From Antedon mediterranea (lineage: Eukaryota > Animalia > Echinodermata): a DNA stretch of 64,000 nt. Below the pieces are notes generated by a model, which was given only the letters and a program-made list of their open reading frames with translations, did not search any database and was not told where the DNA came from. The translations under genes were made by a program, and so were the position numbers. Positions 2,601-56,360 of this stretch are shown piece after piece (positions within the stretch are counted from its first letter, which is position 1; every line of letters begins with the position of its first letter). The stretch covers positions 12,400,001 to 12,464,000 of the forward strand of contig NC_092674.1 in assembly GCF_964355755.1 (NCBI RefSeq), read 5' to 3'.

Positions 2601-2630
2601 CGGAAGACGGAAAACGTTAACAACATTGTA

Positions 2631-6071: not shown

Positions 6072-6315
6072 GAAATGAAAATGAAAATGTGTGAACTATT
6101 TTAAAACGGGATAGATGATAATGATGATCCTGTCAAGTGTATAACAAAATATAAGAAAATTAATGAAAAAAGGAGTAATACAGAATTCATATATGTAAAA
6201 ATGTTACTTATGAACTGTAACGACATTTACAAGTTAAATAATACGATTTTATGTAATATGAGATAACATGAATGTGAATAAAAGTGGTGTTTGCGCCACA
6301 AAAGAGAAAAAAAAA
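6072..6315 (-). mobile_element. Short retroposed 3'-UTR fragment with 17-bp TSD
   Basis: AGTAACTGTACTGTAAT occurs at 6055-6071 and 6316-6332. A (TGAAA)n simple-repeat tail is at the left end. Confidence 0.55.
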
Positions 6316-12296: not shown

Positions 12297-12592
12297 TATA
12301 ATAATAATATCCTGGATTTATACAGCGCCTAATGTTGTGAAACCTCTAAGCGCTGAACATTATTACCCCAGTCATTTTCCTGATCAAACACCAATGGAAA
12401 CATACTCCCATAATGCAGCTAGTAATCAAGTTGTGTCTTGATCATCTAACCGGGTTCCCAATTATACACCTGGGTGGAGAGAGGCAAACGTAAGTAAAGT
12501 ATCTTGCCGAAGGATACAAGCAATGCAGCGAGACATCGAACCTCGATCTCACGATCAGTAGTCGAACGTCCAACACACTGCGCCAAACGCCC
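12297..12592 (-). mobile_element. tRNA-derived SINE
   Basis: The minus strand begins GGGCGTTTGGCGCAGTGTG and has a B-box-like GGTTCGATGTC, a central GGCAAGATACTTTAC...CTCTCCACCCAGGTGTA block, an L2-like GCGCTGTATAAAT end and an (ATT)n tail. Confidence 0.7.
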
Positions 12593-15500: not shown

Positions 15501-15595
15501 AGTCTTCCAGGAAACTCTCAAGATGAGTAAAATATATCGCAGGTGAGTTTGGGGGTCTGTAGACAACTGATGCCCGTATTACGACTGAAGCCACA

Positions 15596-17826
15596 TGAAT
15601 AGCCTTCAAGGTGCGAACTTATCTGATTACACCATGCACGCCAAATGCAGATCTGATAATGGACGTCGAGGTGGTGGTGTAGCCTTTTATACACATAATG
15701 AAGTTAATATTAAAGTAAGTGATGTTTCTATGGATATCCATGATAATTGTGAATTTGAATGTTTGTGGAGAAAATTTGACTTCCGTAGTGTTGGTGTAGC
15801 AATTAAAACTATGTTCGTTGGCGTCATTTATTACCCTCCCAATTCGGCTAATGCCACTGAGCTTCTCAGTCACATTACGAGTACCGTTTATAGCATTATA
15901 ACTAGTAATTTTCCAGCAGGAATTATGGTATGTGGTGATTTCAATGATCTCAATACTTCAGAATTGGAGTCTAAGTTGTTTTTGAAACAGGTGGTTAACT
16001 TTCCTACTAGACAAATTGCGCACCTCGATAATATATTTGTTAACATTCCTAATATGTTTACTGAAGCTATGGAACTACCACCAGTTGGTCGAAGTGACCA
16101 TTGTTGTATTTTGTTGGAACCATCAACCAATCTTGCAGATGTAAATCACAAGCCAGCACATTTGCTGTTTCGTCCACTAAGAGACTCCTCGATCAGATCA
16201 TTTGGACAATGGATGTCTTTGCATAATTGGAATCATCTTAGTGCTTATGAAAACTCTTCAGATTTTTGGGAAATGTTTAATCAGTAGCTCAACAGTGCTT
16301 TTGAAAAGCATTTTCCTCAAATTTTCACTAACAAGAGATTGAATGACAAGCCCTGGTTTACAACTAATTTTAGAAGATTAATTTTGAAACGCCAGGTGGC
16401 TTACCGAAATGGACAGGATATCCAGTGGAAAAACTTACGTTGTAAGGTACAGCAGGAAGTCAAACGAGCGAAGGCTTCATTCTATGAAAGTCTATTGCTA
16501 CCTTCAAAGTGAACCAACCTGTAAAATGGCACCGCAGTGTCCAGAAGATCTGTAATATGAGGAAGAAATCAAGTCGTATTCCTGACTCGGATGTTGACCC
16601 TATAAACACCATTGAATGCATCAATAGCCATTTTGCACTTGTATGTAATCAGCTTCCGGCTTTGAATATCAACAAGCTACCAGCCTTCCTCCCAGCAAGT
16701 GAACCACCAGTTATACATGCATGGGAAGTTCGTAAGGCTTTGAATAAATTGAACTGTAATAAATCAAGCCACTCATCAGACTTACCAATTAAAATAATGA
16801 AGGAATTTGCTATTGAACTTGCTAACCCGCTAACTAAATTATTTAATACGTGTCTCAATGAGGGACACTTTCCACGTCAGTGGAAAACTGCTTCAATATT
16901 TCCAGTTCCAAAACAAAACAAGATCCGCTCTTTTGATGATCTTCGTCCAATATCATTGACGCCGGTCTTTGCTATGATTTTTGAGGCATTTATTGCCAAA
17001 TGGATTATTGAGGATATTGATAATAAATTAGACACTAAGCAGTATGGTAATACTAAAGGTTCATCTACTATACATTATCTTGTTATTGTTGGATATGTTA
17101 AATTATGTTTATGAAAGTCTTGACAAGCCCAAACAATCAGTTGAACTCTGTACAATTGATTTTACTAAGGCCTTTGATAGAGTTAATCATACAATCATTA
17201 TAGATAAATTAATTAAACTTGGAGTTAGGTCTTCCATTGTTTCCATCGTCTGCAGCTTTCTGTGTGAAAGAACTCGTACTACCAAACTTGGCACGCACAT
17301 TTCTTCCACCAAATCAATCTCTTGTCGGGTACCACAGGGAACCAAACTGGGACCCATACTATTCTTGGTTCTAGTAAACGATGCTGCCATTGAAAGTAGT
17401 AGGCGTTGGAAATTTGTGGATGACCTGACTCTAGAGGAAGTAACCAAATATGGTGCTTCCTCTAACTTACAAAGTGTCCTTAATAGTATCAGTGAGTGGT
17501 GTGCATCTAATGATGTTCTACCTAAACCAGCTAAATGCCAAGTAATTAAAATTAACTTGTTAAAGCAACGGCAGCTTAATTTAGTATACACTATTGATAA
17601 TTATAATCTTCTAATAGTTAGTAAGTTAAAACTGCTTGTTGTAATAATCCAAAATGACCTCAAATGGGGTTCAAATGTTAATGATATAACATCAAGAGCC
17701 TCGCGTAGACTATTCTCACTATGTATCCTGAAAAGGTCTAGTGCACCAGTCAGTGACCTGGTTAAAGTATTTACATCATATATCAGACCTGTGCTGGAAT
17801 ATGCCTGCCAGGTTTGGCATTCACGA
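15596..17826 (+). mobile_element. Second CR1/L2-clade LINE fragment (EN and RT), opposite orientation, nested
   Basis: Motifs: RRGGGVAFY, YYPP, CGDFND, GRSDH, LRPISLTP, IDFTKAFDRVNH, VPQGTKLGP, KFVDD, RPVLEYACQVWH. Confidence 0.9.
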
Positions 17827-18060
17827 TGCCTTAACAGTCGGAGTTGATCGATTTTGTCCGTTAAACTATTTATATTGATGTGCGCAATTCGTAATCCCTT
17901 ACATTGATTTATAAAATCAAACGTTGAGGATCTCCGGCTGCCACCTGCTTTCAAATCAAGCTGTGTATTCCCTCGAAGTACTTGAGCTTGATTGTTGTTG
18001 TTTGGTATGGTATTCGTTCCGGGTAGATGATTACTATTTCCGTAATGTCTGCCATTTTGG

Positions 18061-18087
18061 TGGACCAGGGTTTAATTCAATATCTCC
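18061..18087 (-). other. 2A-like ribosomal-skipping (StopGo) motif GDIELNPGP
   Basis: Exact D(V/I)ExNPGP consensus, preceded by SELCMC and located upstream of the LINE endonuclease. Confidence 0.85.
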
Positions 18088-18655
18088 ACACATACATAAT
18101 TCTGACATGTTAAATGTACTTTGAGAGTTATGATAGTATCGGATGGGCGCATTGAAAAATTTGCGTTTGAAAGTCCCGCTATACGTATTCATACGCTTCA
18201 GATCGTGTAGAGCATTATACGTATCCGGCCTTGCTGTCGCCTGCGACAACTCGACGTAGGAGAGCGACGATAATGAAATTGATATAGGCTTACCGATAAA
18301 ATCACTGTCGTATGTCCAATTTAATCCATTAAAACGGTCATTGTTCGCCAATCCATAAACAATATCATAATCATACTTCTTGTATCGGTAGGATTCATAA
18401 TATATGAACCCAGATACAGCAATTAATGAAAGTAATAATAGAGTATAAAGACTCATCGTGTTAACATGCATACAATAAAGTTATCTTGAATCTTAAGATC
18501 TTTACTCAGTATCATAATCCAGTATGCTCAATTGGATTGCAATAGAGATTTTTGTATTTATTGATCAAGTTTAAGAATTCTTTACCATGCTAACCTACTA
18601 AAATATTGTGATAATACATAACATATTGTACGGTTTATAAAACAAATATTCTTAC

Positions 18656-19249: not shown

Positions 19250-19782
19250 CTTTACATCTGACGGCTTAAAAAGTCTTGTTTGAAGTTGATATTCATCATT
19301 TGCAAGCATCTTTCCAAAAACTCCTAACAACATTCTTTTCCTACCACGAAAGAAATTTCTTAGATGACCCATTAGTGCATACCAACAGAAATGATTTAAA
19401 GTTACATAACAATGACTGTTGTTTACAGTAAACTGTACATCCTTTTCATCACTTTTCAATGTTATTTGTTTCCATTCATCTTCAATGCGATCTTTAACAA
19501 GTAGAGTGAATTCCCAAAACTCTACATTTACAGCATCGTGTTGAAATGACAATGAAATGGGCTTGTTAAAGCTGGTGCCCTCTGGTCCACATTTAACAAT
19601 AGGTGATATAATGGTTTCACGAGGATGAGATACAGGCATGTCTGTTTCCTCAAAACAATTTTCTAGCGATATTTTAACTTTCTTCCCTTCAATTGCTTCA
19701 GAATGTATCTCCAACTTTATGTCTTCATCCTTAAGATGAAGCACTCCACCAGAAGATCCCACAACTATCTCCATAACTTGAT
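19250..19782 (-). CDS. Exon: ZU5 domain and start of UPA
   Basis: CTGCAG acceptor, AAG|GTAATT donor, 533 nt, phase 1-0. Motifs: GSSGGVL, LEIHSEAI, IISPIVKCGPEGTSFNKPISLSFQH, LNHFCWYALMG. Confidence 0.9.
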
Positions 19783-20791: not shown

Positions 20792-20894
20792 CTTTCAATA
20801 TTTCAATTATCTCGGCTTTTTGACCTGCCCTTAATTCGTCGTCATATTTCTCACACGCATTTTCATTGTACAAATCTATTACAGATTTGCCATA
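20792..20894 (-). CDS. Exon: ankyrin C-cap/linker (YGKSVIDLYNENACEKYDDELRAGQKAEIIEILK)
   Basis: ATACAG acceptor, G|GTAAGT donor, 103 nt, phase 0-1. Its terminal G plus AT from the ZU5 exon makes an in-frame Asp codon. Confidence 0.85.
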
Positions 20895-23058: not shown

Positions 23059-23157
23059 GTGGTTTAAATGATTTACGTCTGCTCCAACTTTGATGAGATA
23101 CGTACATGTACGCACGTGACCCATATCTGCAGCACACAAAAGAGGTGTATTCCCGTC
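23059..23157 (-). CDS. Ankyrin-repeat exon (DGNTPLLCAADMGHVRTCTYLIKVGADVNHLNH)
   Basis: 99 nt, TTTCAG acceptor, GTAAGT donor, phase 0-0, ankyrin consensus. Confidence 0.92.
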
Positions 23158-33170: not shown

Positions 33171-33269
33171 ATTGTCTGGAAGATCCAATTTAGCACCTGC
33201 CTTGAGCAAAATAGTGCAAACATATGTGTGGCCGTGATATGCAGCCAAAAGTAAAGGTGTCGATCCATC
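33171..33269 (-). CDS. Ankyrin-repeat exon (DGSTPLLLAAYHGHTYVCTILLKAGAKLDLPDN)
   Basis: 99 nt, TTTCAG acceptor, GTAAGT donor, phase 0-0. Confidence 0.92.
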
Positions 33270-33829
33270 CTGAAAGATTACAAACATTATGGTATAGTAT
33301 TTTTCACTCTACAACATATTTAATCTTTTACTGAAATCAATTCGGTGTGATCAATTAAAAATAACTTTATGTAAATAAATAATGCCAAATAAGATTTTTC
33401 AGATGATGTATTGTGGCGTATACATCTATTTTGCTTGTATAATATTCTTTTTTTATAGTACTGTACAAAATAAATGTTTCTTAGCTTTGCCTGAAATGTA
33501 AACATTTCCAGTAGTGCTAATGTATCTGAATGTAAATTATGATACAGAGTGGTGTTTGCGTTTAAACAGGCAGTTACGACTGAAAACGTATCCAGGCTCC
33601 AAAAGGTTCAGGTAACACATTTTGACTGCTAACTTCTTACTAGGCCCATTGGTTTCATTTTGCCGTCACGGGGAGGAGATAAATGAATTACCAAATCAAA
33701 TGGATATCTCGATTCATATCCTTTTTTTTGTGTATATATCACTTGTACAAAACAATAACAAAAACACGACACACCTTACCATTCTGTGCTCTAAAGGCAA
33801 ATGGTAAACACTATTACGGAATCTACAAT

Positions 33830-35770: not shown

Positions 35771-36578
35771 GGTTAATATTATATTGTATTCCGTTTAATC
35801 AGCAAGGCCTACATTTCATTTTCCATGTGTTAATTTTCACTATGATCACACGATTACGAAATCAGCAACAGTTGACCACATACGAATGACAATCGGTTCT
35901 TTTTAGTGGGCTGAATTATTAACATTAATTGACTTAAACGGCCACCAACTGTTATTATTCAGTTTAATAAAACCAAGTCTCACTTGTACAGAGAATATGT
36001 CTTGAAAACTTTTACAGATACAATATCATTTCACTATAAATCTTTGATATCATGTGTATATAAACAACACTTGATGTGTTTACAATTGCCATGTCACGGG
36101 AATACGGTTGAGTTTCATAGGAAACAAAGTTGTAGAGATTATAAGTTTCTGAAATATACTGTAGTGCTGCTGTGTTATCGGAGAAAGTATTTTATAATCT
36201 AATCACAGTATGTATTCAATTATCTCAACACAAATACCAATTGAAATGCCATAGTTTCTGTGATTAGTTCTTTAGTTCTTTTAAATATGTCTACTATAAT
36301 CTTTCCATCTCTTCTGAAACTTGTTTTCAATACAATCAATTGCCTGTTGTAGATACAAACAAGGAAAACGTTTATTCATCATTACTAACAAGTAAGTTAT
36401 CAGGGATAGTTATTTTTTCAGGTTGATGTACTTACATTTCCATCACATAACCCTTACCTTTTATCACGTAACGTATTAAGAGTACACGCCTGTTCATGTG
36501 CGCCATATTATTGCTCATATATTCTTTACCAAAATAATTGTGCAAGCACTGTTAACGTAGTTTACCTAGTTTACCAAT

Positions 36579-37424
36579 AGAGAGAAATGGCGAACCGCGA
36601 TGACGTCACTCAAATTTCACCGAGTGGGTATATATTGTAAACAAACCATTTCGCCACATGTTTTTGTATGGGAAATTCCGATGGGTTGAGTTAAAAAGGA
36701 AGGTAGAAAAGAACGTTTAAAACACACATAATAGCAGTATCTTTTTTTTTTGCAACACCCTTAACAATTTTAATGTTATATGGGCAAATCTTAACATATT
36801 TTATTTTAATTTGGATTGAATTAAGATGCGTTTTTGTTATATACTGTACCCAGCTCTAGGCCCTAGATAGTTGGCCTGTATGCTGTAGTACCTCGGATTA
36901 TCGGTTATTATAATAATAATAATATTGGAAATTCGTTATTGCATACTGTACTACTACTACTACTACTACTACTTTAGCTAGGGTGCTGCTGGCCTCTCCT
37001 AGCTAGGTAGTAAGACTAAATAGAGCATCTCTAGTAGATGTAGGCCTAGCATTAGTTTCAGCTTGACAACTGCCATTTTGTTATGTGGCTAGTGATGCTT
37101 CATGCAGGGAGGGGGGGGGGGGGGCTACCGCCAGTAGATAACACCATTCTATATAATACTATATAGGCATAGTCTAATGTAGACCTACAGATATGAGATA
37201 TTTTTAGGAATATGATTGTGAATGATGGATGACTTTTATACATATTTCATTGTTTTATTGTGTAAGTACACAAATACAACAAGAATTATGAGCGTTACAG
37301 CAACAACATTGGTTAGACGAAACCATGATTCACGTGTATAAACATAGGAAATGTGTCGCCCTCAACGGTTTGTTATGATTTTATACCCACTCGGATTTTA
37401 GACGTCGGTTCGCCATTTCTCTCT
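36579..37424. mobile_element. ISL2EU/PHIS-like MITE (second copy at 42295-43131)
   Basis: AT|AGAGAGAAATGGCGAACCG ... CGGTTCGCCATTTCTCTCT|AT. It is absent from the paralogous site at about 47973. Confidence 0.7.
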
Positions 37425-40400
37425 ATTGGGATTGTATATTTATGTAAAGTAATACTATTAAAACAAGGTCAATACTCGGGAAAATGGATTAGATACTGCA
37501 TGACATTTTTTTCTGTTATTAACCATATTAGGAAGTAAAAATAAAATTTCAATTATTGCTTTATTTTGGGGTTAAAGGTCACCAAATACAGGCCAAAAAT
37601 ACCCTAAAATCTTATTTTAAAAATAAAACTATTAAAATAGTTTAGATTCACTGTGATTCTAGAAAAAATTGAACAGCGAATTTATCAAAACTGTTGTTGT
37701 TGCTCTTTTAAAGGGAAATTTCATGGTTTCTCCCAGTTTACATGTTTACAAGACACTATTAAAATTTACCAAATATAACATTATTAGTGGATTTATATAA
37801 TTTAAGATGTCTTCTTTCTAAACAATATTAAAAAGTTTCGATTGTCACATTTACCATTTTTGGACTTTTGCCACACTTTGAATTGGTTCTGGTCCACTGT
37901 GCCACGGGCCAAGAGCTATTCTTTTATTATTCTAATTTTTTTTAATCGGCAATCATGACCCTTTATAACTTGTTGTTGTATATGATGTGCCAGCGTGTGC
38001 GATATTGGTACATGTTACGTTCTAGGCGTTGTAGTAGTAAACAACCTGATGAAAGTGACATTGGGTAGACTTGTGAATGGTAGTTGTGAATGAATTGCCG
38101 TTTCTTACACAGGGAGCATACCGCCTCTCGTAACTACGGATTTTGGTCCCTGGATGTGTATCGCATGGCCCCCGGATGTTGACGCGTGAGCTTGGCCAAC
38201 TTAACTTCTAAATATAGTTACTGTATAAATGTTTCTTACAAAGACAAGTGCGTCCTATCACTAGTACAGTTAGTAACTTGATTCATATTTTGGTTCCTCT
38301 AACTTTGATACAGCACAGATATCGACGCGTGAACAGCAATGAAAATGAGTTCGTTAATTAGTCGTTTTACTGTAATAATATATATATATATATTTGTTAT
38401 ACTAGAAAATTAGTTTGATGAAATGTATTCTACAAAATTAGAAGGCCTAATAATTGTTTTCCCTCAGAAATGAAGTGGGGGGAGGTCACGTGTCTGTTTA
38501 TGAGTGATAATCAATAAGGCATTTAATTAAAATGCAGAGTGTCTTAAAATTAGGCCTACTTGACTGAATCAGAGTAGACCTACTACACAGTTGCATTTAA
38601 ATGAGTCAATAATTAGCATGATAATTTATGTAATTAATACACAGTGAAAGAGCTTATTTTAGTATCCTATAGTAATACATTTTTCTATATAATTTAAAGA
38701 GAAGATGGAATTTAAAATCAGTTACAAAAGCCGACGATAAGAGAGAATTACATGTTTCAAAAAACACCCACTTGTTATTAAAAAAAAAACATTGCACATC
38801 GGCGAGGCTCGATGTCATGCGTGACTGACGAAAACTTGCATGTTTTGTTGTACTGTAGGCCTATCAGTTAATCAGCATACAATGAAACGTGTATCTTGTA
38901 CCCCATCATGGTACAAAGTGTCATACAAATCGTACATTTAATAATTCGAACAGCCTAGAACGTGAACATAATTCGTAGCGTACGTATACACAGTACACGA
39001 CTACGCGTCGGTAAACTTCGCCAGGGAAGTAAGCCTAACTATAATATACGCATTTTGATTCCTGGATGGAACATGATGTATATATTACGCGTAAACCGTG
39101 TATTTCACGATGCCACTAGATCGGTCACTTAATAATAATAATTACTTTAATTTTCCAATTCATCATGCGTTTGTCGTTACTATGAACTTTAATTGTACTG
39201 ATTGGAATAATTAATCAGTAAAATAATGCTTGCCTTCTGATCAATGTTAGTTACATTGAAAACCTCATCCCAAGGATGCGATGTAAATCAACAGTTGAAT
39301 AGCAAGAGAAGACATGGGTTGGCTAATTCACTTGCAATTGTTTGTCTTTTTTTTAACAATATTTTGATGACGAAGTAACAGTTACTGTATAGTCAGAGTG
39401 GCAATAGTTATACGAATTATTGTTTCAGATTTGTAATAATTACGTCAAGTATAGCCTCTTCTCTAGTAGCCATGTCAGCCTCTTGACTTAGCTATTGGGC
39501 ATGGAAAAGTGCACTGATATTTGCACGTTAAAATCGCCTATGACACCAACGCAAGCATAAAACAACTATATTCTACAAATAAACATGATCAGAAATAGAC
39601 AATGTAGTCGCTTAGTATACCAATTTCATCATGTAACTGCTGTGTTCAGTCTTCTGTTATTTACGTATATTATGCAGCAACACCTTCCCCGTGATGATGT
39701 TTAACGATGACTATGTAAAATTAATGTTAAACATCAGAGATGTTATCTCTAGGGTTGCTAGTTATAATGTAGTAAAAACAAATAATACTAGAATATAAAA
39801 AGTACATAATGAAAAAAGAAAACCTGGATAACCCAATTTCGTTAACTATACTAACTTTAGATAAATTGGTGGTCACATATTGAAGTAATTTCGGATTTGA
39901 CAAAAGTATGAGTATGTATGAGGTTAATTAGGCCTATTTCAGAAAACAGTTTAGGGGATTTTTTTTTCTCAGCCCCACTCTGCAGTCACGATCTCTTTTC
40001 GCGAATTCTAATTTCACATAAACGGGCAATGAAATCATTATTAAAAACATGTAAGCTTATACGGTAGGTATATATTTATATTATTTATTTATTTATTTTT
40101 GTTTATCCTTTTCGTGGATACTATTTAAAAATACAAACAGAAGGTTTGTATTTTTTCCGATTGTTTCGCTGTATACAGTAAATAAGTTGCTGATGAATTT
40201 TATGATGATTTTGAAGAATAAAATGAATAATTAAAAATATGAGGCGTATAAAAATCATTTTGCATGATTGATTTCTGTAATATAAATTCTGTAAAAGCGT
40301 TGTTTCCAGTTTTAATTGTTTAGGCCGACAGATCGAGTATGTTGTTACACAGGCCATGATTGTTATTATAAAAATCTGATATGAAAATAACTATTGTTCT

Positions 40401-40606
40401 TATGTTGTACCATGTGGAGTTGAAGTTTAACAGAACAATATAAATAGTTCTAATGGTTCTGCTAATTTAGTATTATTTATATAATGTAGTGACAGTACTT
40501 TAGGTATGTTATTACCGGTTCGCCCTTAAATTTGAAAATTAAACCATTTATTTTAATCACACTGAACTATATAGCACCCTTATTAATAATGTTATGTAAA
40601 ACTTAC

Positions 40607-40705
40607 ATTTGTTGTAAGATCCAAATTAGCACCTGCCTTGAGCAAAATAGTGCAAATATCTGTTTGGCCATTACTTGCAGCATAATGCAAAGGTGTCCAT
40701 CCGTC
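40607..40705 (-). CDS. Ankyrin-repeat exon (DGWTPLHYAASNGQTDICTILLKAGANLDLTTN)
   Basis: 99 nt, TTTCAG acceptor, GTAAGT donor, phase 0-0. Confidence 0.92.
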
Positions 40706-40951
40706 CTGAAATATTACAAACATTATGTTATAGTATTTTTCACTTCACATCAAACTATCTAATATTGTACTAAAATCAATTAGATGTGATCATGTGTATA
40801 TACAAATTCAATTAAATAATTAAATTTATATAATAATTTAAAGTATGTGTAATCAGTGCTACTAAGCGCCTTTGATGATTACATTGTTTACTTAATTATG
40901 GCAACACAAACACAATATAAGTATATGAAAGTTACTTGTTGAAACTTAAAA

Positions 40952-41260
40952 TTCAGCACCCGTCTATTTACAGGAACTAATTCAGAAGTATAACCCTGGT
41001 CGCCAGGGACTCGGATCTACACAAGATATTACTCGTCTTGTTGTTCCTAAAACTAATAGACTATTTAGTGATAAATCATTTTCTGTCATTGGACCTAAGT
41101 TATGGAACAATTTACCTATTAATGAGCGTATTGCTCCAAGTGTACAGTGTTTTAAAAAATTGTTAAAGAGTTTTCTTTTCCCTAAGGAATAATTTAGATA
41201 TGTACTGCTCTAATTAATATACAACTTTTGGGAAAAGCGCTTTATAAATCTCTATAGTAT
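40952..41260 (+). mobile_element. L2 LINE 3' fragment (duplicated at about 46621-46929)
   Basis: Encodes APVYLQELI..LVVPKT..DKSFSVIGPKLWNNLP..FKKLLKSFLF and ends in AAAGCGCTTTATAAAT. Empty paralogous sites lie at about 52095 and 55005. Confidence 0.8.
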
Positions 41261-41534
41261 AAAATAAATTGCCATAAATAGATTGTTAAATGATACTGGT
41301 ATGTACTTCTTGTATCTAATTTATAAACAAAAAATATTATTTTAATTATAAATTTGTAATATTAAACCATTGGACAGTGTGTGTGTGAAATATGTAATGT
41401 ACTTCCTCTATCTAATTTATAAAAAAAAAATAAAATATTTTAATTAGATTTGTCTTTATTCATTAGGCATAATGTGTATGTACCAGTTCCAGAAACGAAT
41501 GAATCACGATTATTAATAAAAAGTATGAAAGCAC

Positions 41535-41919
41535 ACATAAAACGAACAATTCGTCGCTGCAGAACTGAATCTTCTTTTCAATCATATATCCCACGTGTTA
41601 CCAGAATTTGGAATAACTTATCCAGTGAAATCAGCAACTTAAATATTTATGTTAGGTGTTTTAAAACCAAATTACTTAATTATCTCAATATTTATTTTTT
41701 AAATAATTTTGATATTGAAAAAGTGTGTAGTTGGTCGCTTTCTTGTAGATGCTTTAATATTGTAGAACGTAATTTATTTATTTTTCTTATATGTTTCTGT
41801 TCTGGTTTGACCAACTAGCATAGTTGTAGCACCTGTTTGGTCTTTCCATGCCTCCTTTTATAATTGTTTTGTCTTCTTTGTTATGTATATGGCAGAAATT
41901 GAATAAATAAATAAATAAA
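41535..41919 (+). mobile_element. CR1-type LINE 3' fragment (duplicated at about 47204-47588)
   Basis: Encodes RCRTESSFQSYIPRVTRIWNNL..FKTKL..CSWSLSCRC and ends in a (TAAA)n tail. Confidence 0.75.
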
Positions 41920-44900
41920 CACAGTATGTATTCAATTATCTCAACACAAATACCAATTGAAATGCCATGGTTTCTGTGATTAGTTCTTTAGTTCTTTTAA
42001 ATATGTCTACTATAATCTTTCCATCTCTTCTGAAAACTGTTTTCAATACAATCAATTGCCTGTTGTAGATACAAACAAGGAAAACGTTTATTCATCATTA
42101 CTAACAATTAAGTTATCAGGGATAGTTATTTTTTCAGGTTGATGTACTTACATTTCCATCACATAACCCTTACCTTTTATCACGTAACGTATTAAGAGTA
42201 CACGCCTGTTCATGTGCGCCATATTATTGCTCATATATTCTTTACCAAAATAATTGTGCAAGCACTGTTAACGTAGTTTACCTAGTTTACCAATAGAGAG
42301 AAATGGCGAACCGCGATGACGTCACTCAAATTTCACCGAGTGGGTATATATTGTAAACAAACCATTTCGCCACATGTTTTTGTATGGGAAATTCCGATGG
42401 GTTGAGTTAAAAAGGAAGGTAGAAAAGAACGTTTAAAACACACATAATAGCAGTATCTTTTTTTTTTTGCAACACCCTTAACAATTTTAATGTTATATGG
42501 GCAAATCTTAACATATTTTATTTTAATTTGGATTGAATTAAGATGCGTTTTTGTTATATACTGTACCCAGCTCTAGGCCCTAGATAGTTGGCCTGTATGC
42601 TGTAGTACCTCGGATTATCGGTTATTATAATAATAATAATATTGGAAATTCGTTATTGCATACTGTACTACTACTACTACTACTTTAGCTAGGGTGCTGC
42701 TGGCCTCTCCTAGCTAGGTAGTAAGACTAAATAGAGCACCTCTAGTAGATGTAGGCCTAGCATTAGTTTCAGCTTGACAACTGCCATTTTGTTATGTGGC
42801 TAGTGATGCTTCATGCAGGGGGGGGGGGGGGCTACCGCCAGTAGATAACACCATTCTATATAATACTATATAGGCATAGTCTAATGTAGACCTACAGATA
42901 TGAGATATTTTTAGGAATATGATTGTGAATGATGGATGACTTTTATACATATTTCATTGTTTTATTGTGTAAGTACACAAATACAACAAGAATTATGAGC
43001 GTTACAGCAACAACATTGGTTAGACGAAACCATGATTCACGTGTATAAACATAGGAAATGTGTCGCCCTCAACGGTTTGTTATGATTTTATACCCACTCG
43101 GATTTTAGACGTCGGTTCGCCATTTCTCTCTATTGGGATTGTATATTTATGTAAAGTAATACTATTAAAACAAGGTCAATACTCGGGAAAATGGATTAGA
43201 TACTGCATGACATTTTTTTCTATTATTAACCATATTAGGAAGTAAAAATAAAATTTCAATTATTGCTTTATTTTGGGGTTAAAGGGCACCAAATACAGGC
43301 CAAAAATACCCTAAAATCTTATTTTAAAAATAAAACTATTAAAATAGTTTAGATTCACTGTGATTCTAGAAAAAATTGAACAGCGAATTTATCAAAACTG
43401 TTGTTGTTGCTCTTTTAAAGGGAAATTTCATGGTTTCTCCCAGTTTACATGTTTACAAGACACTATTAAAATTTACCAAATATAACATTATTAGTGGATT
43501 TATATAATTTAAGATGTCTTCTTTCTAAACAATATTAAAAAGTTTCGATTGTCACATTTACCATTTTTGGACTTTTGGCACACTTTGAATTGGTTCTGGT
43601 CCACTGTGCCACGGGCCAAGAGCTATTCTTTTATTATTCTAATTTTTTTTAATCGGCAATCATGACCCTTTATAACTTGTTGTTGTATATGATGTGCCAG
43701 CGTGTGCGATATTGGTACATGTTACGTTCTAGGCGTTGTAGTAGTAAACAACCTGATGAAAGTGACATTGGGTAGACTTGTGAATGGTAGTTGTGAATGA
43801 ATTGCCGTTTCTTACACAGGGAGCATACCGCCTCTCGTAACTACGGATTTTGGTCCCTGGATGTGTATCGCATGGCCCCCGGATGTTGACGCGTGAGCTT
43901 GGCCAACTTAACTTCTAAATATAGTTACTGTATAAATGTTTCTTACAAAGACAAGTGCGTCCTATCACTAGTACAGTTAGTAACTTGATTCATATTTTGG
44001 TTCCTCTAACTTTGATACAGCACAGATATCGACGCGTGAACAGCAATGAAAATGAGTTCGTTAATTAGTCGTTTTACTGTAATAATATATATATATATAT
44101 ATTTGTTATACTAGAAAATTAGTTTGATGAAATGTATTCTACAAAATTAGAAGGCCTAATAATTGTTTTCCCTCAGAAATGAAGTGGGGGGAGGTCACGT
44201 GTCTGTTTATGAGTGATAATCAATAAGGCATTTAATTAAAATGCAGAGTGTCTTAAAATTAGGCCTACTTGACTGAATCAGAGTAGACCTACTACACAGT
44301 TGCATTTAAATGAGTCAATAATTAGCATGATAATTTATGTAATTAATACACAGTGAAAGAGCTTATTTTAGTATCCTATAGTAATACATTTTTCTATATA
44401 ATTTAAAGAGAAGATGGAATTTAAAATCAGTTACAAAAGCCGACGATAAGAGAGAATTACATGTTTCAAAAAACACCCACTTGTTATTAAAAAAAAAAAC
44501 ATTGCACATCGGCGAGGCTCGATGTCATGTGTGACTGACGAAAACTTGCATGTTTTGTTGTACTGTAGGCCTATCAGTTAGGCATACAATGAAACGTGTA
44601 TCTTGTACCCCATCATGGTACAAAGTGTCATACAAATCGTACATTTAATAATTCGAACAGCCTAGAACGTGAACATAATTCGTAGCGTACGTATACACAG
44701 TACACGACTACGCGTCGGTTTGATTCCTGGATGGAACATGATGTATATATTACGCGTAAACCGTGTATTTCACGATGCCACTAGATCGGTCACTTAATAA
44801 TAATAATTACTTTAATTTTCCAATTCATCATGCGTTTGTCGTTACTATGAACTTTAATTGTACTGATTGGAATATTTATTCAGTAAAATAATGCTTGCCT

Positions 44901-47588
44901 TCTGATCAATGTTAGTTACATTGAAAACCTCATCCCAAGGATGCGATGTAAATCAACAGTTGAATAGCAAGAGGAGACATGGGTTGGCTAATTCACTTGC
45001 AATTGTTTGTCTTTTTTTTAACAATATTTTGATGACGAAGTAACAGTTACTGTATAGTCAGAGTGGCAATAGTTATACGAATTATTGTTTCAGATTTGTA
45101 ATAATTACGTCAAGTATAGCCTCTTCTCTAGTAGCCATGTCAACCTCTTGACTTAGCTATTGGGCATGGAAAAGTGCACTGATATTTGCACGTTAAAATC
45201 GCCTATGACACCAACGCAAGCATAAAACAACTATATTCTACAAATAAACATGATCAGAAATAGACAATGTAGTCGCTTAGTATATATACCAATTTCATCA
45301 TGTAACTGCTGTGTTCAGTCTTCTGTTATTTACGTACATTATGCAGCAACACCTTCCCCGTGATGATGTTTAACGATGACTATGTAAAATTAATGTTAAA
45401 CATCAGAGATGTTATCTCTAGGGTTGCTAGTTATAATGTAGTAAAAACAAATAATACTAGAATATAAAAAGTACATAATGAAAAAAGAAAACCTGGATAA
45501 CCCAATTTCGTTAACTATACTAACTGTAGATAAATTGGTGGTCACATATTGAAGTAATTTCGGATTTGACAAAAGTATGAGTATGTATGAGGTTAATTAG
45601 GCCTATTTCAGAAAACAGTTTAGGGGATTTTTTTTTCTCAGCCCCACTCTGCAGTCACGATCTCTTTTCGCGAATTCTAATTTCACATAAACGGGCAATG
45701 AAATCATTATTAAAAACATGTAAGCTTATACGGTAGGTATATATTTATATTATTTATTTATTTATTTTTGTTTATCCTTTTCGTGGATACTATTTAAAAA
45801 TACAAACAGAAGGTTTGTATTTTTTCCGATTGTTTCGCTGTATACAGTAAATAAGTTGCTGATGAATTTTATGATGATTTTGAAGAATAAAATGAATAAT
45901 TAAAAATATGAGGCGTATAAAAATCATTTTGCAGGATTGATTTCTGTAATATAAATTCTGTAAAAGCGTTGTTTCCAGTTTTAATTGTTTAGGCCGACAG
46001 ATCGAGTATGTTGTTACACAGGCCATGATTGTTATTATAAAAATCTGATATGAAAATAACTATTGTTCTTATGTTGTACCATGTGGAGTTGAAGTTTAAC
46101 AGAACAATATAAATAGTTCTAATGGTTCTGCTAATTTAGTATTATTTATATAATGTAGTGACAGTACTTTAGGTATGTTATTACCGGTTCGCCCTTAAAT
46201 TTGAAAATTAAACCATTTATTTTAATCACACTGAACTATATAGCACCCTTATTAATAATGTTATGTAAAACTTACATTTGTTGTAAGATCCAAATTAGCA
46301 CCTGCCTTGAGCAAAATAGTGCAAATATCTGTTTGGCCATTACTTGCAGCATAATGCAAAGGTGTCCATCCGTCCTGAAATATTACAAACATTATGTTAT
46401 AGTATTTTTCACTTCACATCAAACTATCTAATATTGTACTAAAATCAATTAGATGTGATCATGTGTATATACAAATTCAATTAAATAATTAAATTTATAT
46501 AATAATTTAAAGTATGTGTAATCAGTGCTACTAAGCGCCTTTGATGATTACATTGTTTACTTAATTATGGCAACACAAACACAATATAAGTATATGAAAG
46601 TTACTTGTTGAAACTTAAAATTCAGCACCCGTCTATTTACAGGAACTAATTCAGAAGTATAACCCTGGTCGCCAGGGACTCGGATCTACACAAGATATTA
46701 CTCGTCTTGTTGTTCCTAAAACTAATAGACTATTTAGTGATAAATCATTTTCTGTCATTGGACCTAAGTTATGGAACAATTTACCTATTAATGAGCGTAT
46801 TGCTCCAAGTGTACAGTGTTTTAAAAAATTGTTAAAGAGTTTTCTTTTCCCTAAGGAATAATTTAGATATGTACTGCTCTAATTAATATACAACTTTTGG
46901 GAAAAGCGCTTTATAAATCTCTATAGTATAAAATAAATTGCCATAAATAGATTGTTAAATGATACTGGTATGTACTTCTTGTATCTAATTTATAAACAAA
47001 AAATATTATTTTAATTATAAATTTGTAATATTAAACCATTGGACAGTGTGTGTGTGAAATATGTAATGTACTTCCTCTATCTAATTTATAAAAAAAAAAT
47101 AAAATATTTTAATTAGATTTGTCTTTATTCATTAGGCATAATGTGTATGTACCAGTTCCAGAAACGAATGAATCACGATTATTAATAAAAAGTATGAAAG
47201 CACACATAAAACGAACAATTCGTCGCTGCAGAACTGAATCTTCTTTTCAATCATATATCCCACGTGTTACCAGAATTTGGAATAACTTATCCAGTGAAAT
47301 CAGCAACTTAAATATTTATGTTAGGTGTTTTAAAACCAAATTACTTAATTATCTCAATATTTATTTTTTAAATAATTTTGATATTGAAAAAGTGTGTAGT
47401 TGGTCGCTTTCTTGTAGATGCTTTAATATTGTAGAACGTAATTCATTTATTTTTCTTATATGTTTCTGTTCTGGTTTGACCAACTAGCATAGTTGTAGCA
47501 CCTGTTTGGTCTTTCCATGCCTCCTTTTATAATTGTTTTGTCTTCTTTGTTATGTATATGGCAGAAATTGAATAAATAAATAAATAAA
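41920..47588. repeat. Tandem duplication unit 2 (5669 bp, contains one ankyrin exon)
   Basis: Begins CACAGTATGTATTCAATTATC, as do 36204 and 47589. It differs from unit 1 by scattered SNPs, microsatellite lengths and an indel of about 40 bp. Confidence 0.95.
46276..46374 (-). CDS. Ankyrin-repeat exon identical to 40607-40705
   Basis: 99 nt with the same sequence and splice sites. Confidence 0.9.
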
Positions 47589-50500
47589 CACAGTATGTAT
47601 TCAATTATCTCAACACAAATACCAATTGAAATGCCATGGTTTCTGTGATTAGTTCTTTAGTTCTTTTAAATATGTCTACTATAATCTTTCCATCTCTTCT
47701 GAAAACTGTTTTCAATACAATCAATTGTTTGTAGATACAAACAAGGAGAACGCTTATTCATCATTACTAACACGTAAGTTATCAATGATAGTTATTTCTT
47801 CAGGTTGATGTACTTACATTTCCATCACATAACCCTTACCTTCTATCACGTAAAGTATTAAGAGTACACACCTGTTCATGTGCGCCATATTATTGCTCAT
47901 ATATTCTTTACTAAAAATAATTTTGCAAGCACGTTAAATGTATTGATTCAAGATCAACATTACTTTGTTTATCAATATTGGGGTTGTATATTCATATGAA
48001 GTAATAATATTAACAAGGTCAACACTCGGTAAACCAAATTTTTTGGAAAAAAGCAATGGATTTGATACTGCATGACATTGTTTTTCTGTTATTAACCATA
48101 ATAGAAAGTAAAAATAAATGTCAACTATTGCTATATTTTGGGGTTAAAGATCAACAAATACAGGTCAAAATACCAAAAATCATATTTTTAAAATAAAACC
48201 ATTATAATGGTTTAGATTCACGGTGATTCTAGAAACAGCAGAGAATTTATCAAAACTGTTGTTTTTGCTCTTTTAAATTGAAATTTCATGGTTTCTCCCA
48301 GTTTCCATGGTTACAAGACACTATTAAAATTTACCAAACATAACATTATTAGTGGACAAACAATATTAAAAAATTTGGATTGACAAATTTACCATTTTTG
48401 GACTTTTGGCACACTTTGAATTGATTCTGTCCCACTGTGCCATGGGCCAAGAGCTATTCCTTTATTATTCTATTTTTTTAAATCGGTAATCGTGACCCTT
48501 TATAAGTAATGTTGTATATGATGTGCCAGCGTGCTACGTTCTAGACATTGGAATAGTAAACAACTAATAGTAAAAAAAAGTTGAAACGAATTGTAAACGT
48601 CTGTCCAGCATTAGAGATAATCTTAAAAATGTCTCTTCTGGAAAGAGGTAATAGATGCATGGAGTAATTTTATTTCTATTCATTATCCAAAGTTTGTTGA
48701 CGAGCTATTACGAATGCAAATTTGGAATAATGAAGTAATAAGAATAGGCAACGAATGTATAAGATATGGAAATTGGGGAAAAGCAGGTATTCTGTTTGTT
48801 AATGATTTGTTTAACAGCAATGGGCAATTTATGAATAAAAAAGAAGTCGAAGATACCTATGGAATTAAGATAAATTATAAAAAATTAATAGGAGTAAGAA
48901 GGCTTCTTATGGAAAAATTTAACAATTTAATTATATGTGAAATTTTAAAAAACAGTTTTGCCAGATATTCCATTTCATATAAAAAGTACTCTTTCAACAA
49001 AGAAAGGGATGTCGTATTTTTTATGATGTTTTAAATAACTCAATGTTTACATCATGGAAAGCACAAAAGAAATGGGCAGAGAATACATTTGTATTCAATA
49101 ACGAACAATTGAAAACAATCTACCTAGATCCACATACGTGTACAATGAATATTGTTTTAATATATTTTCAATATAAAATTGTAAACAGAATAATTGCAAC
49201 AAATGAACAATTATTTAAAATGAATATAAAAGAAACTTCAATGTGCTCATTTAGAGATGGTAAAATCGAAACCATTTAGCATTTGTTCTGTAATTGTCCA
49301 ATAGTAAAAAGGATATGGAACCTTTTCCAGGAAAAAATTTCAGAAAAAAACTGGAGTGCAATTTATTTTTAGTAAAGAGAGCATAATTTTCGGATACCAA
49401 GATGCGCATCAGTTTTTTAATTTAAAAGCCATTAATGCAATTATTCTAATTGTAAAATCATTTATTTATAAATGTAAACTAGTTAAATGTAAGTCAAATA
49501 TCAAAATGGTTATGAACGAGTTAAAAAGGTTTTATGAAACGGAAAAAAGTATTTATCATCAGAATTTTCAGGACAGTATTTTAAATAGAAAATGGATAAA
49601 ATTAGAAGCATTTATAAATCAAATATGAAATTGTTAGAGATTAGAATAATTTTTATGAACCTTTATTTAATTTGTTTGTTGTTTTTGTTTGATTTTTATT
49701 TTTTATTTGATTATGTTTTTCCTTTGTAATGTATTATTATGATGAAAAAAATAAATAAATAAAAAAATAAAAAAATAGTAAACAACCAAATAAAAGTGAC
49801 ATTGGGTAGACTTGTAAATGGTAGTTTCTTACAAAGGGAGCATACCGCCTCTCGAAGCTACGTATTTTGGTACCTGTATGTGTATAGCATGGCCCCCGGT
49901 TATCGACGCGTGAGCTGGGCCAACTTCTAAATATATTCACTCTATAAATATTTCTTACAGAGGGACACCTCCAGATTAAGTGCGTCCTATCACTAGTAAG
50001 TAACTTGATTCAGATTTCTAACTACATGACAGATATTGACGCGTAAACCACAAAGAAAATGAGTTTGTCAATTAGTAGACGTTTTACTGTAATATTAAAT
50101 ATATTTGTTACTAGAAATTAGTTTGATAAAATATATTCTACAAAATCAGTAGGCCTAATCGTTTTCCCCTAATAAATTAAGGGGGTGGGGGGAGGGACAC
50201 GTGTTTGTTTATGAGTGAGAATCAAAAAGGCATTTAGTTAAAATGCAGACCGTCTTAAATTACTTGACATGTTCCGATAAATATATTCGCATCATCAGAA
50301 TTGTAATCAAAGCATAGGATACTTGTATACGTACAAAGTTGCGTTTAAATGAGTCAATCATAGCATGAGAATAGATTTATCGAAACATGTCACCTAATTT
50401 TAAGACGGCCCACATTTTCATTAAATGCCTTATGATATTATTGATTATCAATCGTAATTAGGTGGTATTATACATGATGTGCCTGTTTATGTACAATGAA

Positions 50501-50900: not shown

Positions 50901-51119
50901 TTCTCTTTTTACTTGGTTAGATGAAACATGTTACCGAGAAACAACAAACATTCTAGTTGAAATTGTTTATGTATACCCACAGATTGCACTATTTTCTGTA
51001 TACTTAATTAGGTACTCTTTTCGTACATGTGTTGCTGTTGGAAATAGATAAATATTTCACTTCAATTATTTTCCAAAAATAGTGGTACACAACAATGAAA
51101 GAAAATGTGAAAACTATTA

Positions 51120-54100
51120 TTACTATTGGTTTCATTTTACCGTTACTTAGAGGGGATATGTTTTTTTTTAATGTTTTATAAAATCAAATGAAAATCTTGA
51201 TTCATATCAATTTATTGTATCATTTTGCATAAAATACAATCTTGCTCTACAGCACAACACAATGCAAAAACAGAAAACTGAAAAAACCACGACATATCAT
51301 TCTCTAACATTCAGTGCCCTAAAGACATATGGAAACAATGATTACGGAATCTATTACGAGAGGTGATGGACCTTTTTTTTAACGTCAAATGAGTGCATTG
51401 GATAGGTTAGGTCTTGCAAAATTGAATGTGTTTCCTCAGTAAAGTATCTTATAAAAAGAATCGAAATGAGATTTGCTTAATTATAACTACTAAAGTCCTA
51501 TACGTGAAGCATAACTAATAATACGTTGCAGCTAATTCTTACATGTGGTACAGGTAAACTATAAAATAAAGAATAATGAGAATACTTTCAATGACAGATT
51601 TATAAAAAAAAGACGTAGGCCTATGTCTAATGGGAGGGTTAACTCGAAAGATGTGAGTCTATGTAACAGTAAAGCCTATTTGATACTCTCAGAGCCATAG
51701 TAATTATTTCATTGACATGCATACTTGTCTTGGACAAAATCTGAAAAGAGGCATAGAAATCAGATAGGGGAAGTGGAATGTTACAAGTAGTCAATATAGT
51801 CATTATATCCTAATAATTCCTTCTGATCACTCTTAAGCGTGGTTGACACTGAATTGTTTGCATAGACTATACCCCACTTCAAGTATTATTAAATTATAAT
51901 AATTATGACCTACAGTATCCACGTTATATCACCATATTAAATAATTTGTCATTGTTTAAAGAAAACATTAATCATGATGTTTTGAAAGTGTAATAAGTGC
52001 TACTAAGCGCCTTTGATGTTTACATTGGTAGTTAATTACTGTAATACAAACTTATCAATATAAGTATATGCAAGTTACTTTTGGGTAACTTAAAATTAAT
52101 TGTCATAAACATTTTTTTTAATGATACTGGTATGTACTTTTGTATCTAATTTATCCAAAACAATATTATTTTAATTATAAAATTTTAACATTCAATCATT
52201 GGAGATTTTGTGTGATGTACTTCCTAAATAAAAAAAAATAAGTATGAAAGCAAACATAACAACAGACAATGATTACTAGTTTCCCGAATAATTGTTGAAT
52301 TAAACTAACATTTTGAACTCAACCATCACCGTGATGATATCGGGATATCCGTGTTAACGCACACAGTGTAACAAACATCTTGAAATACACTCATACTCTA
52401 TAAACTGAAAAAAATATATAGTGCTGAATTATGTCTATTATGTGTCATACAGTACTAAATGCGAATAACCAATAAAGTAGTGATTTTTTTCCCTTGGGGA
52501 AAAAACAATGCATTTAATTTGATATTTTTCTTGATAGTATAATATTCAATTGTTTGGTGTATGTCACTGTTATGAGTCCAGGTAAGCACAACTGTGGCAT
52601 CTATTGTCTATAAACGTCTATAAATTTCAAAACCTTTATTGTCTGAATTCGTTTTGAATGAAGTTGTAGGCCTTCAAATTCAAATGTCAAATGAATACTA
52701 ATATTGGTGTCCTTTCTACATGATCTCAAGCTCTTCCGCTAGTCACCTAATCGACCAAAAATATTGGTATGCATACAGAGAGTCATGTCAGGAATAAACA
52801 ATGTAAGTCGCTTATTACGAAGATGGACCTATTTCATTATGTAACTGCTGTTGTCACTATGATGTTATTTACGTACATAATTTGTATAATTAAAGTTTAT
52901 CTATTGCGTAATCAGTTATGTTTTCTGATTGAACTTAACTGATTTTAAATCAATGGGAGCTCATCAGTTATATACATTATAATCATTTCAGATTTGACAA
53001 AATAATTAAAACTGATTACTTTCCGATTATCAGAAAGCTTAAATATGTTAATATTTACATAAACAATGGTACGAAGACGTAAACTTACTGTGAGCTTCTG
53101 CATGTAAATTAAGAGGCTAATTATGCATTTTCAAATAACAGTTCGGAATAGTTGGATTTTGTTGCTTATGTTCGCGAAATTGTCTTTTATTTCAAACTCA
53201 CAAAAACGGGAAATGAAAATTTCGTTATTAAAAACATTATTTAAAGCTTATTCAGTATAGTTAAATTATTCAATTTATTCATTTATTTATATGTGTTGTT
53301 CCTTTTTTTTCTTTTTACTTGGTTAGATAAAACATGTTAGTGATAAAATGCCAATATTCTAGTTAACATTCTTCATTTAATGATAATCCCACAAATTGCA
53401 CTATTTGTGTATACTTAAATAGGTAGCTCTTTTCGTATATTTGTTGCTGTTAGGAAAATAAATATTTCACTTCAAAAACTTTCCAAAAATAGTGGTACAC
53501 AACAATGACAACAAAAAAGAGGGGAAAAAACTCTATTTTACGTTCTTGTTATATAAATATTATGAACGACTGAATTATATAGCACATAATATTTATGTGG
53601 GTAACACTTACTTTTGCCTGAAGATCCAATTTAGCACCTTCCTTGAGCAAAATAGTGCAAACATCTGTGTGGCCGTTTTGTGCAGCCACATGTAAAGGTG
53701 ACGCTCCATCCTGAAATATTACAAACATTATGTTATAGTATTTTCTATCTCTAAACAAAGTAGTAAAATATTGTCCTGAAATCAAAACGATGTGATCAAT
53801 TAAAAATGACGGTATAGTTTTAAATAATGCTACATAGTTAAATTAAATAAAGAGTATTAGGCCTAACCCTTTTTTTAAAGATAATGTATTGTATACATAT
53901 ACATTTGTATTTCTTGTAGACCTATAACATTTGTTTATAGTGCTTTATAAATTTATAAAACAAATAAGTGGTTTTTTTTTGGCCTGAAAAGTAAAACTTC
54001 ATCCGGTAGTGCTAACTAGTCTGAGTGTAAACTGGCAGTTACAGCTAAAATATATCTAGCCTCCAAATTCTGTTCAGGTAACACATTTTGACTGCTAAAT

Positions 54101-56360
54101 TGTTACTATTGGTTTCAATTTACCGTTACCCGGAGGGTATATTTTTTTTTTAATGTTTTATAACATCAAATGAAAATCTTGATTCATATCCATTTATTGT
54201 ATCATTTAGCATAAAATACATTGTTGCTCTACAGCACAATACAATGCAAAAACAGATAACTGAAAAAACCACGACATATCATTCTCTAACATTCAGTGCC
54301 TTAAAGGCATATGGTAACAATGATTACGGATCTATTACGAGAGCTGATGTACCATTTCTTTGAACGTCAAAATAGTGCATTGGATTGGTTGGGTCTTGCA
54401 AAATTGAATGTGTTTCCTCAGTAAAGTCTCTTATAAAAATGAATCAAAATGAGATTTGCTTAATTATAAGTACTGTAGTCCTATACGTGAAGTATAACTA
54501 ATAATACGTTCCAGTCAATTCTTACATGTGGTACAGGTAAACTATAAATAAAGAATAATGAGAATACTTTCAATGACAGATTTATCTGAAAAGAGGCCTA
54601 GAAATCAGATAGTGGAAGTGGAATGTTACAGGTAGTCAATATAGCCATTATATCCTATTATTCCCTTATGATCACTCTTAAGCCTGGTTGACACATAATT
54701 GTTTGCATAGACTATACCCCACTTCAAGTATTATTATAAATATATTATATAATATATTATAAATAATAATAAATAATATAATTATAAATAATATATTATA
54801 AATATTATAATAATTATGACCTATCCACGTTCTATCACCATATTAAATAAGTTGTCATTGTTTAAAGAAAACATTAATCATGATGTTTTTAAAGTGTAAT
54901 AAGTGCTACTAAGCGCCTTTGATGTTTACATTGGTAGTTAATTACTGCAATACAAATACCTACTTATCAATATAAGTATATGCAAGTTACTTTTTGGTAA
55001 CTTAAAATTAATTGTCATAAACAGGTTGTTAAATGATACTGGTATGTACTTTTGTTTCTAATTTATCCAAAACAATATTATTTAAATTATAAACTTTTAA
55101 TATTAAATCATTGGACAGTTTGTGTGATATGTGTAATGTACTTCCTAATTAAAAAAAAAAGTATGAAAGCAAACATAACAACAGACAATGATTACTAGTT
55201 TCCCGAATAATTGTTGAATTAAACTAAAATTTGAACTCAACCATCACCGTGATGATATCGGGATATCCGCGTTAACGCACACAGTGTAACAAACATCTTG
55301 AAATACACTCATACTCTATAAACTGAAAACATGTATAGTGCTGAATTATGTCTATTATGTGTCATATGGTACTGTACTAAGTGCGAATAACCAATAAAGT
55401 AGTGGTTTTTTTTTTCGTAAAGAAAACAATTCATTTAATTTGATATTTTTCTTGATAGTATAGGCCTAATATTCAATTGTTTGGTGTATATCACTGTTAT
55501 AAGGTAAGCACAACTGTGACATCTATTGTCTATAAACGTCTATAAATTTCAAGTCCTTTATTGTCTGACTTCGTTTTGAATGAAGTTATAGGCCTTCAAA
55601 TTCAAATGTCAAATGAATACTAATATTGGTATCCTTTCTACATGATCTCAAGCTCTTCCGCTAGTCACCTAATCCACCACAAATATTGGTATGCATACAG
55701 AGAGTCATGTCAGGAATAAACAATGTAAGTCGCTTATTACGAAGATGGACCTATTTCATTATGTAACTGCTGTTGTCACTATGATGTTATTACGTACATA
55801 ATTTGTATAATTAATTTTTATCTATTTTGTAATCAGTTATGTTTTCTGATTGAACTTAACTGATTGTCAGAAACCTTAATGTGTTAATATTTACATAAAC
55901 AATGGTACGAAGACGTAAACTTACTGTGAGCTTCTGCATTTAATATATACTATTAAGAGGCTAATTATGCCTATTTCAAATAACAGTTCGGAATAGTTGG
56001 ATTTTGTTGCTTATGTTCGAAATTGTCTTTTATTTCAAACTCACAAAAACGGGCAATGAAAATTTCGTTATTAAAAACATTATTTAAAGCTTATTCAGTA
56101 TAGTTAAATTATTCAATTATTCATTTATTTATATGTGTTGTTCTATTTTTTTTCTTTTTACTTCGTTAGATAAAACATGTTAGTGATAAAATGCTAATAT
56201 TCTAGTTAACATTCTTCATTTAATGATATTCCCACAAATTGCACTGTTTATGTATACTTAAATAGGACGGTAGCTCTTTTTGTATATTTGTTGCTGTTAG
56301 GATAATAACTATTTCACTTCAAAAACTTTCAAAAAATAGTGTTACACAACAATGACAACG
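51120..56360. repeat. Second tandem duplication (about 51120-53510 vs 54105-56360) bracketing an ankyrin exon
   Basis: Colinear blocks run from TACTATTGGTTTCA..TTACCGTTAC to AAAAATAGTG.TACACAACAATGACAAC. Confidence 0.9.
53612..53710 (-). CDS. Ankyrin-repeat exon (DGASPLHVAAQNGHTDVCTILLKEGAKLDLQAK)
   Basis: 99 nt, TTTCAG acceptor, GTAAGT donor, phase 0-0. It is visible inside ORF 53549-53785. Confidence 0.92.

Follow-up and report, generated by a model that had tools for sequence, protein, structure and literature searches.

The 64-kb window (the whole stretch of DNA that was analysed, 64,000 nucleotides) carries, as assembled, a young tandem duplication, and the reading that we favour, with a probability of roughly 0.78, is that a 5.7-kb intronic cassette with a 99-nt ankyrin exon was doubled by homology-driven unequal exchange between two 352-bp blocks, A1 and A3. 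What is directly observed is the structure A1-B-A2-B-A3, the hybrid nature of the middle block A2, and an exon that is in frame. We infer that the ancestral order was A1-B-A3, that A3 of one chromatid would have paired with A1 of the other in a misaligned exchange, and that the product would have been A1-B-A3/1-B-A3, whose middle block begins as A3 and ends as A1. Exchange between sister chromatids, exchange between homologues, and break-induced replication lead to the same product and are indistinguishable here. With an exon of 99 nt and phase 0 that was duplicated along with kilobases of its intron on each side, the gene is predicted to have gained one ankyrin repeat, in frame and the same as the one next to it.

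Two tandem units and their divergence

Unit 1 (36200-41915, 5716 bp) and unit 2 (41916-47584, 5669 bp) were delimited with a repeat finder, a BLAST self-comparison, and a global alignment of the two, and the self-comparison thereby bears out the duplicated 5.7-kb cassette that a preliminary description of this DNA had proposed. In the BLAST self-comparison of the 64-kb window, 36200-42271 matches 41916-47937 with 98.4% identity over 6081 columns, and 36200-36555 matches 47585-47937 with 94.1%; beyond the two full units, the third copy is limited to the first ~352 bp, which is block A. The global alignment of unit 1 with unit 2 contains 19 substitutions and 8 indels of 1-42 bp. This corresponds to a substitution divergence of 0.34%, or 0.27% (15 in 5594 bp) without the first 118 bp of A, and the differences, which include a 42-bp indel and microsatellite lengths, are scattered along the unit. 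Because the unit copies differ only by 0.27-0.34% in substitutions, the duplication event is young as judged from its sequence, and the low divergence suggests that the parents were near-identical and the event recent. The window is AT-rich eukaryotic DNA with 0 N in 64,000 bases; there is no gap at the joint, and the junction is seamless.

The differences between the units are unevenly placed: the last 1650 bp (40266-41915 versus 45935-47584) hold 1 differing site and the preceding 3944 bp hold 14, a contrast that is not significant (Poisson P ~0.07, hand arithmetic). The low difference at the unit ends could hint at homogenisation or at constraint near the exon.

The hybrid junction block

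Block A is 352 bp long and has only three occurrences in the 64 kb. The left parental homology block, A1 (36204-36555), lies in the intron between the exons at 40.6k and 33.2k, the right parental block, A3 (47589-47937), lies in the intron between the exons at 53.6k and 46.3k, and the hybrid junction block, A2 (41920-42271), lies between them. A3 is followed by an older cassette, and only this first part of the supposed third unit resembles the young units. A1 and A2 are 98.9% identical, whereas A1 and A3 are 94-95% identical, compared with 99.7% for the units; together with the position of A1 and A3 in colinear older cassettes, this marks the two as paralogues that had diverged before the event.

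Three-way alignments of A1, A2, and A3 contain 25 variable columns. A2 agrees with A3 and not with A1 at three of them, namely 41969 (G vs A) and 42036-37 (AC vs CT). It agrees with A1 and not with A3 at 21, the first of which is 42059 (C/T with a 3-bp gap in A3), followed by 42082, 42087, 42107, 42119-20, 42132, 42177, 42188, 42204, 42246 (2 columns), and 42256, and by 42266-67, 42269, 42272, and 42276 at the decaying edge. The one column left, 42108, is private to A2. A2 is thus A3-type up to 42037 and A1-type from 42059, with 0 columns as exceptions to this order. The flanks follow the same pattern: the left flank of A2 is identical to that of A3 and its right flank to that of A1, and the upstream flank of A1 is unlike that of A2 and A3. 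In a random order, so clean a partition would have a chance of 2/C(16,2)=0.017 when 2 events are set against 14, or of 0.003 if the three positions are counted singly.

The preliminary description had read unit-3 alleles at the start of unit 2 and unit-1 alleles from 42059 onward, had placed the switch in 42038-42058, and had attributed it to non-allelic recombination between older paralogous intron blocks. The three-way alignment reproduces its coordinates and letters, and the three copies of A, with the hybrid in the middle and in the predicted orientation, agree with the cause that it named. The switch interval (42038-42058, 21 nt, TGTTTTCAATACAATCAATTG) is identical in A1, A2, and A3, and the switch most probably lies within it. 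The claim that the breakpoint is mappable to about 20 bp therefore stands for the most likely interval of 21 nt, but it is too narrow as a bound: widening it to 42038-42086 makes the 3' side safe, and full caution on both sides gives 41920-42086. The 5' bound comes from two mutational events only (41969; 42036-37), and the probability of at least two later events in these 118 bp at the divergence of the units is 0.011 if only the A1 lineage is considered and 0.041 for either lineage. The 3' bound depends on letters (42059-62 and 42082) that only the A3 of the window has among the three blocks; if these private letters were younger than the event, the 3' bound would move to 42086.

Older cassettes and the edges of block A

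Unit 1 is colinear with the older cassette that starts at A3, with six ordered blocks, the exon among them, that are 77-83% alike, and A1 and A3 are found at matching positions of these two older colinear cassettes. When the ancestral unit 1 is compared with the older cassette, the four longest exact matches measure 66, 49, 44, and 41 nt and are all within A, the next one elsewhere being 36 nt long. The switch interval begins 2 nt past the 66-nt match, the longest between A1 and A3, and since it adjoins the longest identity, its position fits an exchange that requires identity. A search of 30000-58000 against Rfam gave 0 matches, so that the high conservation of A is unexplained by a known RNA.

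The 3' edge of A is formed by an element bounded by perfect terminal inverted repeats of 24 nt (CCAATAGAGAGAAATGGCGAACCG), which occurs in both young units (36574-37429 in unit 1; 42290-43136, 847 bp, in unit 2) and is absent from the older cassette; the older homology restarts directly after it. The element is ~850 bp long, has a second inner inverted pair and no long ORF, and looks like a member of a MITE-type non-autonomous DNA transposon family. Its two copies have diverged at a (TAC)n and a poly-G run, and the bins at 42328-43247, over the unit 2 copy, reach 10-50 times the depth of unique bins. In A2 and A3, the 5' edge of A is formed by a very high-copy repeat in the tail of the preceding unit; it ends in (AAAT)n and occupies 41592-41915 in unit 1, its unit 2 copy ending at 47584. 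The bins with by far the highest word depth, 41592-41959 and 47210-47611, are those of this tail repeat.

A further, older duplication layer joins 51116-53512 with 54099-56359 (~92%), and a block of ~320 bp occurs three times in it (50790, 53186, and 56029). The ankyrin exon at 53.6k sits in a stretch of ~580 bp between the copies of this layer, and the left copy, which is without this stretch, may represent a cassette from which the exon was lost.

The duplicated exon and its gene

Gene and exons are both on the minus strand, a point absent from the preliminary description. The ankyrin-repeat exon occupies 40607-40705 in unit 1 and 46276-46374 in unit 2, is 99 nt long with phase 0, and encodes 33 aa (DGWTPLHYAASNGQTDICTILLKAGANLDLTTN). 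The two copies are identical including their splice-site context, with the acceptor ...TAATGTTTGTAATATTTCAG (TTTCAG), the donor GTAAGT, and AG/GT intact, as expected for the in-frame addition of an ankyrin repeat that had been proposed earlier. The 33-aa repeat matches Pfam Ank (PF00023) over positions 1-33 of 33 (E 9.7e-12, 44.9 bits versus a cut-off of 21.1). Three other minus-strand exons hold one repeat each and share the design of the duplicated exon: the upstream exon of the older cassette (53612-53710, DGASPLHVAAQ...), the downstream exon (33171-33269, DGSTPLLLAAYH...), and the last ankyrin exon (23059-23157, DGNTPLLCAADM...). They are followed on the same strand by a linker exon (20792-20894, YGKSVIDLYNEN...), which is 86% identical to the crinoid protein P0003, and by the ZU5-domain exon of the same gene (19250-19782, PF00791, E 7.8e-18). 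By its exon content, the gene is of the ankyrin-ZU5 kind and was put together from older copies of the cassette.

Among named proteins, two from a crinoid, P0003 and P0005 (source name Antedon mediterranea), come closest, and the DNA of the window itself probably also belongs to a crinoid or some close relative of one. The repeats of P0003 have the same order as those of the window, namely DGASPL..., DGWTPLH...TTN, ...STPL...PDN, DGETPLMCAA...VNHLNH, and YGKSVIDLYNEN. The DGW...TTN repeat occurs once in P0003 and twice in the gene of the window, and its single occurrence in P0003 fits a single copy as the older state. A tblastn search of the window with P0005, which has a Death domain, found no Death domain, and tblastn gave nothing credible in the window for the Roc or Death parts of P0003 and P0005. 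Retrotransposon ORFs fill the region below 19 kb, and the gene may continue beyond the window.

The space downstream of the ZU5 exon is occupied by fragments of non-LTR retrotransposons on both strands within 1-18500 (RVT_1 at 13845-14642, minus, and 17032-17847, plus; an endonuclease at 15193-15618, minus) and by an inverted pair of 970 bp (7728-8688 / 9520-10491, 97.8%). We also observed that the last 18 nt of the intron before the ankyrin exons read ATG TTT GTA ATA TTT CAG, in frame with the exon; such intron ends are found on the minus strand at 40706-40723, 46375-46392, 53711-53728, and 33270-33287. The gene models P0003 and P0005 begin with MFVMFQ and MFVIFQ, and their annotated starts may be intron ends taken as coding sequence, in which case the models would be truncated.

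Contigs from sequencing runs

Sequencing data came from a set of eight runs of three studies, none of them recorded as RNA, in the form of Logan contigs, which show presence and not absence, drop variants, and have a depth that is not a copy number. The contigs, which are short and broken at repeats, were aligned to 39200-44700 (X1-X4) and to 45200-49200 (X1, X3, X4, and X5), and the microsatellite stretches 41893-41931 and 47562-47600 were skipped in this alignment.

In two samples (S1 and S2), abundant contigs in the context of A3 have three extra letters behind 47727 and 47728, like A1, and carry A, A, and G at 47748, 47773, and 47870, again like A1; they keep the A3 letters at the places that match 42087, 42119-20, 42132, 42177, and 42188. 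This abundant sequence has ~5 times the word depth of the unique contigs of the unit, and in X1 a minority of the depth carries the A3 letters of the window (140/3637 at 47748, 530/3637 at 47773, and 688/3131 at 47870). Because of the ~5-fold depth and the X1 minority, the abundant A3-like form probably represents close paralogues rather than an allele. Over 350 bp, the A3 of the window shows at least five private events; only ~0.5 should have arisen after the duplication, which indicates that most of them predate it. A 559-nt contig of X3 was considered as an allele of the unit without the inverted-repeat element, and this was rejected, as the contig is contiguous on 47601-48164. Its interpretation as the A3 allele of the samples is weakened by a depth of ~5 times that of the unit and by the X1 minority with the letters of the window.

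No piece bridges the tail repeat into A in the contig alignment, in which the microsatellite at the joint was skipped. Among the contigs listed in X1-X3, which drop variants, none is of A1/A2 type at 42087-42188. The S1 contigs, which also drop variants, show one letter only at each site that differs between the units: the unit-2 letter at two sites (39309 and 39668) and the unit-1 letter at five (42739, 43222, 44530, 45526, and, by inference, 45934), a mosaic that fits both copies drifting from one ancestor. There is no two-fold step in the contig depths, which give no copy number. The missing A1/A2-type contigs, the single letters, and the flat depth are as popped bubbles together with paralogues would give. 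The best S1 contigs differ from the window within the unit by 5 letters in the 1678 nt of X1 pieces listed (~0.3%), and with such a difference inside the unit we dropped the idea that the divergence of the units is far below heterozygosity.

One contig of X5 (depth 9.6) joins the end of the exon to its start with one changed letter, although its locus and RNA nature are uncertain, and in other X5 contigs the exon passes directly into a next repeat with no intron between them. X5 thus seems to include ankyrin sequence that is spliced or intronless, and the joins come either from spliced RNA with tandem DGW-like repeats or from intronless paralogues. In every run, the exon bins (46272-46405 and 40488-40855) have 10-50 times the word depth of the neighbouring intron, and in two samples 47.6-49.2 kb has ~5 times the depth of the unique parts of the unit. 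Many close copies of the exon and several of the older cassette seem to be present in the genome, and with so many copies of the exon family the X5 contig is not assignable to the present locus.

Alternative explanations

The duplication may be real and driven by homology while the exchange took place elsewhere in 41920-42086, the observed pattern having been sharpened afterwards, either by point mutations of A1 or A3 or through gene conversion over a short tract. We regard this as improbable, though it is the strongest competitor of an exchange at the switch interval. It is favoured by the two events that alone set the 5' bound, with a probability of later A1 mutation of 0.011-0.041, by the A3 letters at 47727-28 and 47748, which are absent from the abundant A3-like contigs of S1 and S2 and could be recent, and by the private change of A2 at 42108, which shows that block A does mutate. 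However, all three positions at which A2 equals A3 lie 5' of all 21 columns at which it equals A1, the excess of private A3 events over the ~0.5 expected places most of them before the duplication, and the minority depth of X1 carries the A3 letters of the window. A different suggestion, that block A is a mobile element with three independent insertions and that the near-identity of the units has nothing to do with it, would account for the sharp edges on both sides and for A-like contigs at ~5 times the depth of the unique parts of the unit. Yet the edges are explained by the tail repeat on the 5' side and by the inverted-repeat element on the 3' side, with the older homology restarting after the element, and A1 and A3 stand at matching places in colinear old cassettes. 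Moreover, there are only three copies in 64 kb, and the 5.7-kb units are contiguous with A. An independent insertion of A at each place is therefore highly improbable.

An assembly artefact, in which there is one real unit and two haplotypes or read sets were placed in tandem, is in our estimation unlikely, somewhat more so than an exchange at another point of block A. The single letter of the S1 contigs at each unit-differing site and the lack of an A1/A2-type contig among those listed would be expected of it, and the divergence of the units (0.3%) is about that between the window and the best S1 contigs (5 letters/1678 nt). On the other hand, contigs drop variants by design, and the S1 mosaic of letters is what is expected of two copies that drift from one ancestor. 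A genome with one unit has no DNA in which the tail repeat is followed by A and then by the inverted-repeat element, so that such an artefact would need reads joined through a 352-bp overlap at 95% identity; the joint contains neither an N nor a gap, and the hybrid switch is oriented as in a true exchange. The 42-bp indel and the differences in microsatellite length are spread along the unit. On balance, homology-driven unequal exchange between A1 and A3 is the reading that we retain.

Discussion

Non-allelic homologous recombination between direct repeats in introns gives rise to tandem exon duplications, for example the Alu-mediated ones in human genes, and hybrid repeats at the junction are its classical signature. 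The present locus resembles these cases in that direct homology blocks flank the unit, three blocks are present afterwards with a hybrid in the middle, the exchange falls in the longest stretch of identity, and an in-frame exon is gained. Unlike in Alu-type cases, the blocks are remnants of an older cassette duplication and not dispersed mobile elements, and the event is known only from one assembly, as a fixed state. The mechanism belongs to the textbooks, and the locus is a clean further instance of it rather than a new kind; no paper on this locus was among the titles listed in a literature search.

Unequal crossing over has been named as a cause of changes in repeat number, and ankyrin repeats are described as often tolerating added units (Schueler and Bornberg-Bauer 2016, PMC5100051). 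In that study, gains are inferred from protein alignments, whereas here the DNA junction itself is preserved. The repeats of the window are encoded by one exon each, with introns of 5-10 kb between them.

Proteins that combine ankyrin repeats with ZU5, with or without a death domain, include the ankyrins and UNC5-like proteins. The gene described here is like them in having a run of 33-aa Ank repeats followed by ZU5, but unlike ankyrin-ZU5-death proteins it has no Death, UPA, or Roc domain that could be found in the window. Compared with P0003, repeat order and linker are colinear, with 84-91% identity in three exons, but P0003 and P0005 carry Roc or Death, and not ZU5, after the linker.

Of note, the blocks that supplied the homology are left over from earlier rounds of duplication. 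The known view of the mechanism is unchanged by this locus, which provides a tidy, datable case of the growth of a repeat protein in which the exchange point can be read to a few tens of bases. It is usable for teaching and for annotation, since an exon with an identical neighbour may be skipped in gene models or merged with that neighbour. We consider it possible, though rather doubtful, that the additional cassette segregates as a copy-number variant, within an ankyrin-ZU5 gene family that is growing fast in a crinoid-like animal. If this were true, the growth of a repeat protein would have been caught in the act, with the parental blocks and the hybrid still readable, and the layers of 77-83% and 92% that lie side by side would offer a natural series for the identity that such an exchange needs.
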